Positions 3,408 through 13,081 are shown, counted from the stretch's first letter. The stretch is DNA of 64,000 nucleotides from Candidatus Poribacteria bacterium (GCA_965215265.1 OZ244048.1:3904001-3968000), one strand, 5' to 3'. Numbers and translations are program-made. The notes: generated by a model not told the origin, from the sequence alone.

Positions 3408-4514
3408 TTGCGCCAGAATCAAGCAGATGTAGTTATCATTGGCGGAGGGATTATCGGTTGCGCAATCGCGTATAATCTCGCCAAGCATCAAGTCAACACG
3501 CTCGTGATTGAAAAAGCAGCACAAGTTGGCCAGGAAGCCTCGTGGGCAGGCGCGGGGATTTTAACCTCACATGCGTCAACTGATGCACCGTATCCAACGC
3601 TCTGCCGTGCCAGCCTTGCCTTGTACCCATCACTCGCGGACGAACTTAAGGCAGAAACGCAGATCGATGTTGAATTGATTCGTGCCGGCACACTGTCTGT
3701 GTTCTTTAATTCTGCAGAAGCCACAAGAATTATCGGCTTAGCAGAGCGCCGCATTAACCGCGGATTTTCTGCGGAAGTTTTGACTCCAGAACAGGCATGG
3801 CACTTAGAACCGGCACTCTCAACGTCTATTGCCGGCGCTGTCCTATTTCCTGAAGATGCCCAGGTACGCAACCCAAAACTTGTCACGGCCCTGGCGAAAG
3901 CGGCACTGAAGCGAGGCGCACGTTTTAAACTCGGCAATCCTGTTACAGGATTCATCCGAAAAAACAAGCGTGTTGTCGCCACCGTTGTCAACGGGGAAAC
4001 CGTATACGCGGACACATTTGTCATTGCCGCCGGGTGTTGGACAGCGCAGCTGACAGAATTGCTTGACGCTACTATGCAAATCTTGCCTGCAAAAGGCCAG
4101 ATAGTGCTTGTTGAGACAGGGCCACCACTATTTCAGCGTACGATTGATGGACTCGGCATCTATCTCGTACCACGCGCCGATGGGAAACTTCTACTTGGTG
4201 CCACGGTCGAATTTGTTGGTTATGACAAAAGTCCGACAGTAGATGGCATCAAGGAGATGATTGATGCAGGAATTCAAATCGCGCCGGGAATCGCAAGCAG
4301 CACCTTTGTCCAAACGTGGGCAGGTTTACGTCCTTATACCAAGAACGGACCGCGACTCGGATATTTGCCCGGGTATGACAATGTGGTGCTGGCATCTGGA
4401 CATTACAAAAATGGAATTCTGCTTGCTCCGATTACGGGACAACTTATCGCAGAGTTATTAACAACAGGCACACCTTCTCTTTCACTGGATACATTTCAAC
4501 CGGCCCAGCCGTAG
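3408..4514 (+). CDS. thiO: Glycine oxidase ThiO (FAD-dependent DAO family)
   Basis: GGGIIG FAD motif, ASWAGAGIL, KGQI, WAGLRP, GHYKNGILLAPITG; TTG start after GGAGG. Confidence 0.8.
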   Translation: MRQNQADVVIIGGGIIGCAIAYNLAKHQVNTLVIEKAAQVGQEASWAGAGILTSHASTDAPYPTLCRASLALYPSLADELKAETQIDVELIRAGTLSVFFNSAEATRIIGLAERRINRGFSAEVLTPEQAWHLEPALSTSIAGAVLFPEDAQVRNPKLVTALAKAALKRGARFKLGNPVTGFIRKNKRVVATVVNGETVYADTFVIAAGCWTAQLTELLDATMQILPAKGQIVLVETGPPLFQRTIDGLGIYLVPRADGKLLLGATVEFVGYDKSPTVDGIKEMIDAGIQIAPGIASSTFVQTWAGLRPYTKNGPRLGYLPGYDNVVLASGHYKNGILLAPITGQLIAELLTTGTPSLSLDTFQPAQP

Positions 4515-4709
4515 GCGGGGTTTTTCTGAACCCCTATTTAGGCTGCCCCTGATGGCACTCAAAGTTGTTGTCTTGCCATCCATTAAATCAACAAAGAAAG
4601 TGTCCAGGTCTTTTTAGGTTCCCTATAACCATCACCAGTCATTTTAAATGAATTCTTTTTTGAGATTCGGATTAAAGTATTTAAGTTATTTTTTTTGTAG
4701 GATAGAAAC

Positions 4710-4728
4710 AGGGGTATTAGATACCCCT
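4710..4728. promoter_or_regulatory. Inverted repeat AGGGGTAT-tag-ATACCCCT, candidate operator upstream of the small ORF/ECF sigma unit
   Basis: Perfect 8-bp inverted repeat in AT-rich intergenic DNA about 35 bp before the ATG at 4763. Confidence 0.4.
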
Positions 4729-4762
4729 ATCTGACGATATACTTTAGAAAGGAGATTACATA

Positions 4763-5008
4763 ATGCGTCAGGACATTCAAGTTCTCATTGAGGCAATGCA
4801 TCACGTGTGGGATAATAATTCGCGCCTACGGAGAGCGGTATGCAGGATATACGGCTATCGGAAGGAACATGCGTTCGGAAACAGCCGAGGCGCGCGATGT
4901 TTGGACAATAACGCAATCATGGAAAAGGTATCTATTTTTAGGAGTGAACGAGCAGGCCCCTACTACAAGCACAGTGGAAAGGAGGTAGAGTGGCTCGCCT
5001 TCGCTTGA
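4763..5008 (+). CDS. Small hypothetical protein (possibly a degraded gene)
   Basis: Strong AAAGGAG RBS before the ATG; no recognisable motif. Confidence 0.35.
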   Translation: MRQDIQVLIEAMHHVWDNNSRLRRAVCRIYGYRKEHAFGNSRGARCLDNNAIMEKVSIFRSERAGPYYKHSGKEVEWLAFA

Positions 5009-5032
5009 ACACTCCTTTCTGAGGAGACAAGC

Positions 5033-5626
5033 ATGCAGCAAACTGACGAACAGTTGATGCTCTCTGTCAAAGATGGAGATGGAGACGCATTCCAAACTTT
5101 AACGGAACGACACTATTCACAGACTTTAAATTTTATCTATCGGTTTGTTAAAGACCGGCCGCTCGCGGAAGATCTCTGTCAGGAGACGTTTCTTCGGCTC
5201 TGGCGCAGTGCTCCAAGGTACCGCCCGATTGCCAAATTCCGCACGTTTCTCTATCATATTGCCAAGAACGTCTGTTTCAAACAGCTGGCGAAAGAACAGC
5301 GAACACCCTACATGGAATCCTTGGATGTGCTCGCTAATAGAGATAGAGATGATGAAAACCATCAACCGCTTGCAGTCGCGATCTCAGATACACATTACTC
5401 ACCTGAAGCAATTCTGATTGCTCAAGAAACCCGGGAGATGATTCAAGCTGCAATCGAGAAACTGTCAAAAGAACACCAAATGGTGTTCCAGTTAACAGAA
5501 CTTCACGGGTTATCTTATCAAGAAGTCGCTGATATTGTTCAATGTCCTATCGGTACTGTGGCTTCGCGAAAAAACGCCGCGATTCGACAGCTCCGTAAAT
5601 TTTTGGCACCATATAGAGAAATATAA
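5033..5626 (+). CDS. ECF-type RNA polymerase sigma-70 factor
   Basis: AEDLCQETFLRLW (region 2), FRTFLYHIAKN, GLSYQEVADIVQCPIGTVASR (region 4). Confidence 0.92.
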   Translation: MQQTDEQLMLSVKDGDGDAFQTLTERHYSQTLNFIYRFVKDRPLAEDLCQETFLRLWRSAPRYRPIAKFRTFLYHIAKNVCFKQLAKEQRTPYMESLDVLANRDRDDENHQPLAVAISDTHYSPEAILIAQETREMIQAAIEKLSKEHQMVFQLTELHGLSYQEVADIVQCPIGTVASRKNAAIRQLRKFLAPYREI

Positions 5627-5723
5627 CATCCGCTTCAGAAGCCTTTAGAACAGGTTGTAAAACGCATGTTACTTTCTTGACTATGGGTTCCCAGGGCATT
5701 GTTCTGGATAAAGGCTTTTCTCT

Positions 5724-5768
5724 ACACCCTGGTTCGTGAATCGCGCGCCAGGGTGTTTTTCTTTTTTC
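5724..5768 (+). terminator. Probable intrinsic terminator after the ECF sigma gene
   Basis: ACACCCTGG...CCAGGGTGT stem followed by TTTTCTTTTTT. Confidence 0.55.
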
Positions 5769-5771
5769 AAG

Positions 5772-5951
5772 ATGGAAGCACTCGGAGAAATAAACTGCAC
5801 CCCCGAGGAAAAAGCCAGTGTTGAAAAAATACTCGCCCTTATGAAAGACGGTCACAGCTGGAAAGTCGGCAGATTACTCATTAACGAAGAAGAATATCCT
5901 GGCATTATCGGAGCCATAGAGTTTATTTGTGAAGTACCAGATTCAAACTAA
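5772..5951 (+). CDS. Small acidic hypothetical protein A (paralogue of 5971..6189)
   Basis: MEALGEINCTPEEKASVEKILALMKDGHSWK aligns with MDALEQLDLTPEKKAEVQKILGLLLEGAGWK; no clear RBS, possibly 5'-truncated. Confidence 0.55.
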   Translation: MEALGEINCTPEEKASVEKILALMKDGHSWKVGRLLINEEEYPGIIGAIEFICEVPDSN

Positions 5952-5970
5952 CTAAAAAAGGAGCCCTACA

Positions 5971-6189
5971 ATGGTTTATGTCACATACACAGAAGGAATG
6001 GATGCACTCGAACAATTAGATCTCACCCCCGAGAAAAAAGCCGAAGTTCAAAAAATCCTCGGTCTTCTTTTAGAAGGTGCTGGCTGGAAAGCCGTCAGAA
6101 ACATACTGGCTGATCAGGAAAAATTTCCTAACATCCTCAAAGCCATAGAAGTCTACTCTGCTACTACTGCAAATGATATCTACTACTAA
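5971..6189 (+). CDS. Small acidic hypothetical protein B
   Basis: AAAAGGAG RBS; paralogous to the upstream ORF. Confidence 0.7.
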   Translation: MVYVTYTEGMDALEQLDLTPEKKAEVQKILGLLLEGAGWKAVRNILADQEKFPNILKAIEVYSATTANDIYY

Positions 6190-6257
6190 TTATGGCTATT
6201 CAGAGCCATAGCCATAAGATACACAGCAATTAAGACTCGAACTACCAGAGGCGACAA

Positions 6258-6380
6258 GTGCTGGCAAGCCAAACAAGTTTGGCACGCCAAGCAATAAAAG
6301 CTGTCCGTAGTGAACTCAGAAAAATCCACACACACAAAAACGAATGTCTAAAACTTCTGGACTACTTAATCCCTGAATAA
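6258..6380 (+). CDS. Possible 40-aa microprotein (MLASQTSLARQAIKAVRSELRKIHTHKNECLKLLDYLIPE)
   Basis: GTG start 6 nt after GAGG; amphipathic helix pattern; stop lies right before repeat unit 1; below the ORF-track cutoff. Confidence 0.35.
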   Translation: MLASQTSLARQAIKAVRSELRKIHTHKNECLKLLDYLIPE

Positions 6381-6381
6381 A

Positions 6382-6442
6382 CCAACCGCCTGCTGCAGCA
6401 CAAACCTGCAGCAGGCCAAACAAACTAGGAGAATCAAAAATG
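6382..6442 (+). repeat. Hairpin+RBS leader unit, copy 1
   Basis: CCAACC..CCTGCTGCAG-cacaaac-CTGCAGCAGG-CC...AACTAGGAGAAT-caaaa-ATG. Confidence 0.85.
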
Positions 6443-6667
6443 ACTGAAGAAATGACAAACAACGATGAAACCTTCGAAACCTTGGATCAAATCCTTACAG
6501 ACATTGTATATGCCGGACGCAACATGGAAAGAATAATAGAAGAATACCATCCCAAAAAATTAGACCCTGCCAAGATAAAAGCAGTGATAATACATCTGAA
6601 TAAAGCCTCTTCTCTCCTACGAGAGAAGATAAAACCACTCCTATCTGAAGAAGATAGGGATTGGTAA
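6440..6667 (+). CDS. Small hypothetical protein C
   Basis: TAGGAGA RBS; DIVYAGRNMERII..LDPAKIKAVIIHLNKA..LRE shared with the C-terminus of ORF D. Confidence 0.75.
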   Translation: MTEEMTNNDETFETLDQILTDIVYAGRNMERIIEEYHPKKLDPAKIKAVIIHLNKASSLLREKIKPLLSEEDRDW

Positions 6668-6669
6668 GG

Positions 6670-6733
6670 CCAACCAAACCTGCTGCAGCACACACTGCAG
6701 CAGGCCCAACTACAACTAGGAGAATAAAAAATG
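6670..6733 (+). repeat. Hairpin+RBS leader unit, copy 2
   Basis: CCAACC..CCTGCTGCAG-cacaca-CTGCAGCAGG-CC...AACTAGGAGAAT-aaaaa-ATG. Confidence 0.85.
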
Positions 6734-7144
6734 AAATTCAAATTTTACAGCTCAAACACACAATCTTTTTTAGATTGTGACATCTCCGAAGAAACGGAAA
6801 CCCTCCTCAAAAACCTAATAACCCCAGACACTATTAGAATTTTTAAAAAGCCTGTAAACGCCTACCTCAGACTCAATGAGTTTGAAGAAACCCTCTTCGA
6901 ACTCCTAGAATATAGAAAGCGTGACAACGGATATACATTCTATGTCAGGGAAAAAACCCTGAAAAGTCAAGATGAAATCCTCAAAACCTTGAAAAACATC
7001 GATATAGACATTGGATATGCCGGACACAACCTGCAAAGAATAATGGTTCAATATTACAACGTTAAATTCTTAGACCCTGCCAAGATAGAAGCAGTGACAA
7101 TACATCTGAATAGGGCTTTAATTAGACTCCGAGAGTTCATCTAA
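6731..7144 (+). CDS. Hypothetical protein D (extra N-terminal domain plus ORF-C-like C-terminal domain)
   Basis: TAGGAGA RBS; DIGYAGHNLQRIM..LDPAKIEAVTIHLNRA..LRE. Confidence 0.75.
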   Translation: MKFKFYSSNTQSFLDCDISEETETLLKNLITPDTIRIFKKPVNAYLRLNEFEETLFELLEYRKRDNGYTFYVREKTLKSQDEILKTLKNIDIDIGYAGHNLQRIMVQYYNVKFLDPAKIEAVTIHLNRALIRLREFI

Positions 7145-7153
7145 TCCAATACA

Positions 7154-7189
7154 GCATAGGAAAGCAAACTGCTTTCCTATGCCCCTTTT
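7154..7189 (+). terminator. Stem-loop terminator closing the small-ORF cluster
   Basis: GCATAGGAAAGCA-aac-TGCTTTCCTATGC perfect 13-bp stem, then CCCTTTT. Confidence 0.65.
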
Positions 7190-7196
7190 CAAAAAT

Positions 7197-7259
7197 GTGG
7201 CAGGGTAAGGTATTCTTTTCTCTCCTGAAAGGAGAGAAAGATTACCTTTTCCCTGCCAC
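7197..7259. repeat. 63-bp imperfect palindromic element (relative at 21597..21657)
   Basis: GTGGCAGGG..AAGGTA.TCTTT.CTCTCC-tgaaa-GGAGAGAAAGATTACCTT..CCCTGCCAC; its reverse complement aligns with 21599..21656. Confidence 0.8.
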
Positions 7260-7622
7260 CCTGCGGGTGCCGTTTCGACGATCACCGCTTAATAGACACA
7301 CTCCACCACTACTGCTTAAAAATTAAGCAAAAACAAGGGTGGTCACGTTTAGGTCACGTTTTTTATGTGACTGCACAAACCTAATGGCCATCAAGCCGCA
7401 GTACTCTGCGATGACAACTATGAAATCCTCCGGTGGTCACTTGGTAATCATTGGCAAATTGAGGATTCCAAGACAAAATCAGAAAATATATATACAGTTA
7501 CCGTTTTACAGACTCACGCCTTTCACCAACCGTTTTGGACCCATACTTTTGCTTAAACGCTTTAATTTTAACTTGATATTTCCAAGTGAATGCGGTATCC
7601 TATTTTTAGCGAAGCAGAAATA

Positions 7623-8489
7623 ATGCCAAGGCTTGAGGTAAAACGGATGCGTGAAGCGCAGGTGGTCCAAAAAACGGAAGTTCCCGCTACAATAGAATCT
7701 TTGCAACACGAACTCAGCGCACTTGGCCTGAAAGACGGCATGACTTTATTGGTTCATTCGTCATTGCGGGCAATTGGCTGGGTATCCGGTGGTGCAGTCG
7801 CCGTTATCCTGGCACTTCAAGAGACGCTGGGCAGCACAGGAACACTTGTGATGCCTGCATATTCAACGGACTTGAGTGAGCCGAGCAAATGGGAGAATCC
7901 GCCTGTCCCGGAATCGTGGTGGCCGCTCATACGCGAAACTATGCCCGCCTACGATGCTGCGCTCACACCAACGCGTTCAATGGGACTGATTGCAGAGACG
8001 TTCCGAAAGCAGAAAAACGTCCTGCGCACGACCCATCCACAAAACTCATTTTGTGCATCTGGCCCAAAAGCCGGGCATATTATAGAGAATCACTCCTTGG
8101 AATTTGGCTTAGGGGAACAGTCACCGCTTGCCAGAATCTATGAGCTGCACGGTTCTGTTTTGTTACTCGGTGTAGGGCATGCACGGAATACCTCGATGCA
8201 TCTCTCCGAATATCGGGCGAACTTTTCAACCAAACGCATTATCCAGGATGCCGCACCAATTTTTCGGAACGGCTCAAGGGTATGGAAAGTCTTTGAAGAA
8301 ATCAACCTGGATAGCTCAGATTTTGAACACATCGGCGCGGATTTCCTACGTGCAGAGGCAGGACAGGCAGCTCGACACGGCAAGGTCGGACTCGCGAATT
8401 GTCAACTTATACCCCAACGAGATATCGTCGACTTTGCAACTGATTGGATGCAAAAAAATCGAATCAAATCTGCTAAGGATTGCGAATAG
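7623..8489 (+). CDS. AAC(3) family N-acetyltransferase (YokD-like)
   Basis: LLVHSSLRAIGWVSGG, GTLVMP, HPQNSFCASG, SPLARIYE, LLGVGHARNTSMHLSE; exact start uncertain. Confidence 0.9.
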   Translation: MPRLEVKRMREAQVVQKTEVPATIESLQHELSALGLKDGMTLLVHSSLRAIGWVSGGAVAVILALQETLGSTGTLVMPAYSTDLSEPSKWENPPVPESWWPLIRETMPAYDAALTPTRSMGLIAETFRKQKNVLRTTHPQNSFCASGPKAGHIIENHSLEFGLGEQSPLARIYELHGSVLLLGVGHARNTSMHLSEYRANFSTKRIIQDAAPIFRNGSRVWKVFEEINLDSSDFEHIGADFLRAEAGQAARHGKVGLANCQLIPQRDIVDFATDWMQKNRIKSAKDCE

Positions 8490-12234: not shown

Positions 12235-12760
12235 TAGGACCATATCTCACACTCACCGGAAACCGCTGTGGGGGTCCGCGTACGAGGGTGAATACCGGTG
12301 GCGATTGGCGACACGCACGAGACGTGGAGAATAGTACCAACACCCGCCACGCAACACGCGAGATGACTTAGCATTTCTGAAGTTGTTTACAAGTGCATCT
12401 AGATTCGCAGTCGTATTTCCACGCACGCCACTCAACGGATTCCGAGACGGAGACTCAGAATAGAAATCCGCATCATACTCGTCCAGACACCACTCCCACA
12501 CGTTCCCTGCCATGTCGAACAGCCCATATCCGTTCGCGGCATAAGTCCCTACTAGCGTCGTATCGCCACCGTAGTTTGCACGCCCATAGGAAATCGTATT
12601 CCCCCACGGGTACTCCAGACCCGCCTTACCACCCCGCACTGCTCTCTCCCACTACGCCTCCGTCGGAAGACGTTTACCCACCCACTGCACATAAGCCATT
12701 GCACCATACCACGCTGGATGCTCCGCCTTACCCAAAGGATAGTTATTACTGCTCCAAAAG
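12235..12760 (-). pseudogene. Formylglycine-generating enzyme (FGE-sulfatase/SUMF1) domain remnant
   Basis: KRLPTEA* (TAG replaces E), YPWG, NGYGLFDMAGNVWEWC, RVLRGGCW...GFR*; N-terminus missing. Confidence 0.8.
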
Positions 12761-13081
12761 TAAAAAATAGACGAACACATTTTAGACGAAAACAACACTT
12801 TTTGCCATTTTTTTTCTGCCTGACTCAAAGGGTGTTTTGCATGATCGTGCAATCTCTTTTTTTCTCAAATTTTCGTAGAGTTGATTCTGATTCAATCTGT
12901 TTAAATTCGAATTTGGGCTTGAAATTTATGTGTTTATTGTGTAAAATGCTGGTACGCAAAATAGAAACCCTTCGATAGGGTTGCAAAATACCTGAACAGA
13001 GCCGAGAGTTTAGTAGTTGTGTAGATTTTGTTAGCGAGTAAACAGATTTTAGAGATTGGCTGAGCTAAGGAGAGAGTCATA

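Follow-up and report, generated by a model that had tools for sequence, protein, structure and literature searches.

A strain-variable insert of small paralogous genes, two of them behind a shared hairpin leader, in a Candidatus Poribacteria chromosome, probably derived from a phage-like element

In the chromosome of a Candidatus Poribacteria bacterium, several tiny paralogous ORFs follow one another, some of them behind the same hairpin and ribosome-binding site (RBS), which raises the question of where such an array comes from and what its repeated leader does. The window analysed, i.e. the whole stretch of 64,000 nucleotides, corresponds to G000:C1:3904001-3968000 of a single-contig 4.83-Mb genome. 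A first-pass annotation had described an A-rich stretch of lower GC at 5772-7190, enclosed by two terminator-like stems. Indeed, positions 6001-7000 have the lowest GC (0.405) and the highest AT skew (+0.31) among the 64 1-kb bins of the window. The features of the locus are as follows:

5033..5626, + strand: host ECF-type sigma factor gene, left flank (Pfam Sigma70_r2, E 1.5e-18, and Sigma70_r4_2)
5724..5756, + strand: host terminator-like stem with a U tract, left of the insert (folding z -5.2)
5772..5951, + strand: ORF A, 59 aa, A/B family; ATG at the left junction, no RBS on the chromosome
5971..6189, + strand: ORF B, 72 aa, A/B family; preceded by an AGGAG RBS
6190..6217, + strand: perfect 10-bp hairpin right after the stop of B, of a sequence unlike U1 and U2; folding not significant (z -1.64)
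6258..6380, + strand: ORF E, doubtful, 40 aa with a GTG start; its stop codon adjoins U1; no significant NCBIfam match
6382..6439, + strand: leader U1, with CCAACC, a GC-rich 11-bp stem, a 7-nt loop, an A/C-only spacer and an AGGAGA RBS
6440..6667, + strand: ORF C, 75 aa, consisting of a single C-family domain
6670..6730, + strand: leader U2, with a 10-bp stem, a 6-nt loop and an RBS; best match for three CRISPR spacers
6731..7144, + strand: ORF D, 137 aa; residues 1-76 form a D-specific N-domain, residues 77-137 a C-family domain
7154..7182, + strand: perfect 13-bp hairpin 3' of D, terminator-like, foreign, without another copy in the genome
7197..7261, no strand assigned: copy of a host dispersed palindromic repeat (about 120 genome loci)
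7268..7493, + strand: tail of the foreign DNA, single copy in the genome
7590..8489, + strand: host aminoglycoside 3-N-acetyltransferase-family gene, right flank (Pfam Antibiotic_NAT, E 1.2e-90), at the same place in the same-genus genome G001

The foreign DNA reaches further than first proposed. Comparison of metagenome contigs and of G001 delimits an insert of 1,722 bp at 5772-7493 (ends within one base). In metagenome run X6, a contig of depth 6.5 joins 5771 directly to 7494 (150 letters on its shorter side) and other contigs carry the filled allele unchanged; the insert is therefore strain-variable. A single contig supports this empty allele, which could also result from a deletion instead of being the pre-insertion state. 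No target duplication was found beyond one ambiguous A. G001, which lacks the insert, matches the sigma factor gene up to 5631, retains the stem region 5707-5763 (77%) and resumes at 7559 after about 110 bases. As the left stem is conserved in G001 and the X6 contig joins 5771 to 7494, this stem is host DNA and the insert starts at the ATG of A. Thus, both terminator-like stems seen at first are present, but the left one is not part of the array. The sigma factor gene was matched in 16 of 40 relatives and the insert ORFs in none of them. Among 175 other genomes of the phylum, the full leader unit (three chance pattern matches), the A/B family and the insert DNA (best E 6e-4) are all absent, and there is one marginal C-family match (E 1e-3), within a 1,032-aa frame. 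Neither an integrase nor a transposase was found inside 5772-7493, the window encodes no tRNA, and an Rfam search of 4500-8000 gave three matches, all under the gathering score.

At the right-hand side, the palindromic repeat at 7197-7261 is likely a later arrival than the foreign DNA, because it occurs at about 120 host loci and, among the contigs listed, one from run X9 skips the span that contains it (7186-7267). This dispersed repeat is a 65-bp imperfect palindrome, REP/MITE-like, and X9 has a similar word after 7322 instead. In contigs of high depth, the tail segments 7271-7310 and 7410-7449 join C/D-like genes and the leader (7095->7271, 6994->7410 and 7449->6386 among the joints listed). 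Beyond the insert, 7494-7570 reaches an alignment score of 18 against G001, with 7494-7550 unaligned. An 18-bp inverted repeat (83%; 7323-7340 and 7539-7556) with TTAA at its outer ends spans the right junction, which is also crossed by an open stretch of 59 codons that lacks a start (7378-7554); on the basis of these two features, the foreign DNA may once have extended to about 7556.

The ORFs form two paralogous pairs, as first described: A and B are 47% identical over 51 aa, and C and residues 77-137 of D are 52% identical over 61 aa. The A/B and C/D families share no relationship (hhalign probability 0.1%), and all four resident ORFs (A, B, C and D) are intact. No significant match to A-D was obtained in Pfam, PHROG, PADLOC, NCBIfam, PDB or the Atlas, so these ORFs are not fragments of one known gene, and the insert proteins have no sequence relationship to known anti-CRISPR, anti-restriction or defence families. 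Among 5.8 billion clusters and 1.8 billion representatives, close relatives alone were recovered, namely the C-family homologues P0002, P0003, P0004, P0007 (two domains), P0008, P0009, P0013, P0014 and P0026, and a single outside homologue of the A/B family, P0027. Weak PADLOC and NCBIfam matches of P0008 (E 0.002-0.03) were not accepted, and P0010, P0011 and P0012 (three of eight profile matches) were weak and dropped as repeat artefacts. No relatives were found in IMG/VR, GTDB, phage records or plasmid records (PLSDB). The longest contig is 32,185 nt for P0003, P0004, P0008 and P0014, and 34,126 nt for P0007, P0009, P0013 and P0026; these equal lengths suggest two records of phage or plasmid size, with four to five C-family domains apiece. 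The records that carry P0002 and P0027 measure 61,165 nt and 21,989 nt.

Within the C family, sequences appear exchanged in blocks. Indeed, D and P0013 have 58/76 identical residues in the N part and 29/61 in the C part, the C-family part of D is 61% identical to P0002, and on these alignments D is a mosaic, with an N part like that of P0013 and a C part closer to P0002. The C-termini EEDRDW and DDEVIY recur on differing protein bodies. The dN/dS ratios of A/B (0.93; 0.50-2.57) and C/D (1.24; 0.64-2.90), against 0.12 (0.06-0.18) for the sigma gene used as a control, have intervals that both include 1 and are compatible with neutral drift. Indels within the family preserve the reading frame, and in the ten domains conserved hydrophobic columns recur periodically and rates differ strongly from site to site (gamma 0.83, lnL gain 27), which indicates that the frames of the small ORFs are real. 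From the hydrophobic periodicity, the C-family domain is predicted to consist of two amphipathic helices. The mosaics, the tandem fusion and the dN/dS values near 1 point to recombination and rapid surface change.

The leader previously noticed before C and D (CCAACC, a perfect stem, AACTAGGAGAAT, then ATG) was located in both places; it precedes these two genes only, A and B being without it. In U1, CCAACC lies at 6382-6387, the stem at 6388-6416, AACTAGGAGAAT at 6423-6434 and the ATG at 6440; in U2 the corresponding positions are 6670-6675, 6679-6704, 6714-6725 and 6731. Each unit begins within a few nucleotides of the previous stop codon, as reported, i.e. one base past that of ORF E (U1) and two bases past that of C (U2). 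Both stems fold significantly (z -5.9 for U1 and -3.4 for U2; 0 and 1 of 200 shuffles as stable). The RBS motif lies 9-10 bases past the stem, the sense strand of the stem has no U tract and the flanks are unable to pair with the RBS. A scan of the + strand for -35/-10 boxes, made with the E. coli consensus, which may miss host promoters, found none in either unit. The pattern CCAACC..AGGAGAA..ATG occurs at exactly two sites of the 4.83-Mb genome with the CRISPR arrays masked, U1 and U2.

Outside the genome, a loose hairpin pattern retrieved 9 viral and at least 120 metagenome stretches, none with the CCAACC/RBS context or an ORF of the families, and tighter patterns retrieved 0 and 32 viral and 18 GTDB stretches, which are single chance matches, mainly in coding DNA; one further spacer word had no viral match. 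A reading of the hairpin as a restriction decoy found no support, CTGCAG not being depleted in the host (ratio 0.97). As a separate observation, GACGTC, CATATG and GGCGCC are strongly depleted genome-wide (ratios 0.05, 0.17 and 0.22), which suggests resident restriction systems with such sites.

The leader is also recorded in the CRISPR arrays of the host, which were parsed as follows:

G000:C1:524241-535500: CRISPR array, 167 spacers
G000:C1:622350-624100: CRISPR array, 26 spacers, adjoined by a 602-aa ORF
G000:C1:1463323-1468050: CRISPR array, 63 spacers

Three of the 256 spacers match the insert exactly over at least 17 nt, all of them on the hairpin (28, 20 and 20 nt); such an exact match is found in 5 of 2,790 genome windows of equal size. 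The matching spacers are numbers 11 and 96 in the type I-B array and number 11 in the second array. In brief, (i) I-B spacer 11 is the third copy of the hairpin in the genome (28 nt exact, 32/37 overall), (ii) I-B spacer 96 and spacer 11 of the second array each have 20 exact nt and are 36/37 identical to each other, (iii) by eye, one spacer in the third array is similar to a variant of the hairpin, and (iv) I-B spacer 122 matches the RBS and ATG over 18/19 positions and has a word of 15 bases in common with a leader variant from the metagenomes. Several spacers overlap from one array to another, which indicates that the three arrays sample the same invaders. Outside the core, the matching spacers diverge from both resident leader copies (best 32/37), and, as no spacer equals a resident copy, they likely come from an invader. 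Translated spacers gave no significant match to the insert ORFs (best score 25). In addition, the first 20 bases of I-B spacer 153 match G000:C1:3815853-3815872 near a gene start (flank CCG) and then diverge, and isolated copies or mini-arrays of the type I-B repeat occur far from the cas genes (G000:C1:23953, 935531 and 4318500).

How the resident leaders coexist with these spacers could be explained by their flanks. The genome also acquires spacers from its own chromosome; there are 28 candidate inserts of this kind, of which six have a distant match and three are informative; the 5' flanks of the self-derived spacer sources are CCC, CTC and CCG (other strand), and that of an overlapping spacer is CCC, compared with ACC and CAA at the resident leaders for I-B spacer 11. 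On these four PAM examples, the resident copies likely lack a PAM, and they appear not to be self-targeted; their survival would thus be explained without an anti-CRISPR. A related observation is that spacer-sized inserts of host DNA occur outside the arrays, between 29-31 bp duplications, at G000:C1:3283305, 4319485 and 4332992, and the source flanks of these inserts suggest a C-C/T-N PAM.

Rearranged relatives of the array were found in metagenomes. The insert stretch is present in ten runs from six studies, with no RNA run among those listed, which has no bearing on expression, and four of the 13 listed runs were compared (X5, X6, X7 and X9, from four studies). Among the contigs listed, those with variant C/D genes and leaders have word depths of 50-67 (X5), 26-63 (X6), 13-16 (X7) and 8-12 (X9), and contigs identical to the host have depths of 2-9.5; the depth of a contig does not measure copy number, and a related bacterium at depth 1108 is present in X5 as well. 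In these variants, the leader precedes at least two unrelated gene starts (loose ends at 6423 and 6439), C-like starts sit behind at least four other leaders (6405, 6436, 6437 and 6450), and a joint 6706->6437 gives a tandem C-unit-C order. The unit is therefore confined neither to this locus nor to one gene, being found in spacers, in metagenome contigs and before other genes, which agrees with the cassette-like behaviour initially proposed. A leaderless fusion (6656->6438) occurs in at least three runs, with a junction identical to that of the two-domain protein P0007, and in a contig of host depth in X5 (5.1) C is preceded by the end of a further C-like gene (joint 6648->6423). The hairpin had been suggested to be a recombination joint; gene order does change at the leader, but joints also lie inside the paralogous genes (7021->6641, 7094->6613 and 6494->7070 among the joints listed). 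In all four runs, and among the contigs listed, the A/B region was at host-level depth only, so that no tie of A/B to the high-depth element was seen.

The spacer matches and the rearranged variants support a mobile-element origin of the cassette array. Probably, the insert is a fragment of the accessory array of a phage-like element that was repeatedly sampled by CRISPR, captured behind the host terminator by what was likely an illegitimate join. Such a source would have faced CRISPR for a long time (spacers at positions 11 to 122). On it, each small gene would stand behind a hairpin, an A/C-rich spacer and a strong RBS; the hairpin likely shields or stabilises the message and leaves the RBS unpaired, which would make each gene a self-contained, highly translated cassette. 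Homologous recombination among leaders and paralogous genes could then duplicate, fuse, swap and delete cassettes, as with PeSL, and the C-family proteins would conserve a hydrophobic core of helices under a changing surface. Such a surface suggests that they bind a host partner which itself varies, with a defence protein as the most plausible candidate, and it is tentatively proposed that the C-family proteins inhibit a variable defence protein of the host by binding to it. The chromosomal fragment itself is likely promoterless and weakly expressed, given its position behind a host terminator and the absence of promoter-like sites before 6882 (E. coli consensus), and its persistence may be due to leader copies that evade the resident spacers. 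As the element is seen through variant contigs and homologues only, its source could also be a plasmid or another chromosome instead of a phage.

Several known systems share part of this architecture. Integron cassettes are small and promoterless, and their attC sites carry a 5' RYYYAAC and a 3' GTTRRRY box on an imperfect hairpin. The insert is likewise an array of small, likely promoterless genes with a hairpin after each; however, both boxes are missing from U1, a single RYYYAAC past the stem without GTTRRRY on the same strand is all that U2 shows, and there are no extrahelical bases, so that identity with attC was rejected. Nor is a tyrosine recombinase adjacent on the host chromosome, where the only PF00589 match (G000:4117565-4118038) contains a stop. 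The array was not retained as a target of a diversity-generating retroelement either: A is found in 31/46 and 31/50 mismatches, against random expectations of 63% and 67%, and the sole reverse transcriptase of the genome lies 2.5 Mb away. RNA anti-CRISPRs, which consist of a solitary repeat, resemble the host CRISPR repeat, and this reading was discarded because 35-247 of 300 shuffles score equally well for all three host repeats.

The closest likeness is with PeSL of T4-like phages. In the available parts of the two reports, PeSL is an intergenic unit that runs from a stop codon through a GC-rich stem-loop and a Shine-Dalgarno sequence to the ATG of an orphan gene; it carries a sigma70 early promoter, occurs about 50 times per 165-kb T4-like genome, and gene content varies at the units, for which recombination was proposed (PMC2839356, PMC4122927). 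Set against these descriptions, the insert units have a similarly stable stem-loop between the upstream stop and the downstream start (z values above), end in a Shine-Dalgarno sequence and a start codon before orphan genes, and show variant gene content (joints or loose ends at 6386-6457 and 6706-6710), with joints inside genes in addition. By contrast, they have no sigma70-like -35/-10 boxes according to the E. coli-based scan, which may miss host promoters, the genes here are expanded paralogues residing as a piece in the host chromosome, and the source records of 32-34 kb argue against a T4-like phage. As the defining sigma70 promoter is missing, the insert array is not classed as PeSL, although its shuffling is PeSL-like.

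In cluster K mycobacteriophages, SAS (GGGATAGGAGCCC) and ESAS combine an inverted repeat and a short variable spacer upstream of an RBS motif and start codon; as far as the consulted part of that paper goes, ESAS has imperfect 17-bp arms, precedes genes of different families and is of unknown function, and shuffling is not demonstrated there (PMC3203893). The insert stems, with loops of 6-7 nt (ESAS spacer, 4-13 bp) before a start-associated motif, are comparable to the ESAS described there, but their arms are perfect, of 10-11 bp and of another sequence, and neither the SAS consensus nor the 17-bp arms are present. The accessible portions of two other papers describe conserved regulatory leaders with a strong promoter before anti-defence genes of tested function in archaeal viruses (PMC11065993) and the amplification by recombination of a small counter-defence gene, tifA, in T4 (PMC9391042). 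Like these, the insert has shared leaders that mark small accessory genes, and genes apparently multiplied by recombination, which provides a precedent for the guess of counter-defence; on the same partial descriptions, its copies are diverged paralogues whereas tifA amplifications are identical, and no strong promoter was found in its units (E. coli consensus) in contrast to the archaeal virus leaders. Phages of Poribacteria have been predicted (PMC8245591), and no insert-like feature was found in the available part of that study. No description of the source element was found in the literature searched (mostly non-subscription papers, without supplements).

Among the alternatives, a plasmid or other conjugative element is an unlikely, though conceivable, source, in which case the array would be a leading-region block with early expression from the single-stranded DNA as it enters. 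Plasmids would account just as well for CRISPR targeting and higher depth, the viral collections are without a match, and perfect hairpins would form in single-stranded DNA. However, PLSDB is equally without a match, the unit has no -35/-10 boxes (E. coli consensus scan), and with its 60 bp it is much shorter than Frpo/ssi promoters, which are far longer.

Next, the paralogues would be immunity or antitoxin proteins, retained as an orphan array to neutralise toxins of the element or of competitors. This is improbable. The proteins are indeed small, with a conserved core, a variable surface and four to five copies per record, the four resident ORFs are all intact, and the extra C-like gene end before C in the X5 contig of host depth hints that the chromosomal array varies; on the other hand, no cognate toxin was seen, the array is absent from the 175 other genomes of the phylum, A has lost its RBS, and the insert stands behind a host terminator without promoter-like sites on the + strand at 5500-6882.

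There is very little probability that the hairpin is the site of a dedicated single-strand recombinase, integron-like but without attC, which dropped the block behind a host hairpin. The left junction lies exactly at the ATG of A, 16 bases past the host hairpin and without target duplication, a perfect stem follows each of B, E, C and D, and the stem arms are self-palindromic. Against this, the stems have no extrahelical bases and lack the attC box order, the joints are scattered and many fall within genes, a single junction is available, and no recombinase is nearby, the sole PF00589 match being about 208 kb off and interrupted by a stop.

The most improbable reading is a local tandem duplication of decaying, functionless foreign DNA, with the higher-depth copies in the chromosome of another bacterium, which would suit the dN/dS values near 1, the likely lack of a promoter, the doubtful ORF E and the host repeat in the tail, but not the match of spacers from two or three arrays to non-resident variants, nor the open frames, in-frame indels and conserved hydrophobic pattern of ten domains.

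The locus points to a so far undescribed mobile element in a symbiont that has not been cultured. The two new families of small proteins, one of them expanded with dN/dS near 1, are candidates for counter-defence screens, and searches with the repeated leader could trace other accessory genes of the element. Furthermore, the CRISPR arrays converge on a shared non-coding leader, which would be an efficient target when genes vary, and the host chromosome keeps a leader copy that apparently escapes its own spacers. A bolder and rather unlikely extension is that a symbiont element of 32-34 kb uses a hairpin-delimited cassette system to multiply and reshuffle small helical inhibitors of a novel family, each for a different defence target, that several CRISPR arrays of the host aim at the shared leader as the single conserved point amid many variable genes, and that the host captures spacer-proof cassettes at its own hairpins as a strain-variable module.

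Elsewhere in the window, short ORFs at 12253-12986 (- strand) are apparently pieces of one broken gene, presumably one encoding a formylglycine-generating-enzyme (sulfatase-modifying) domain.
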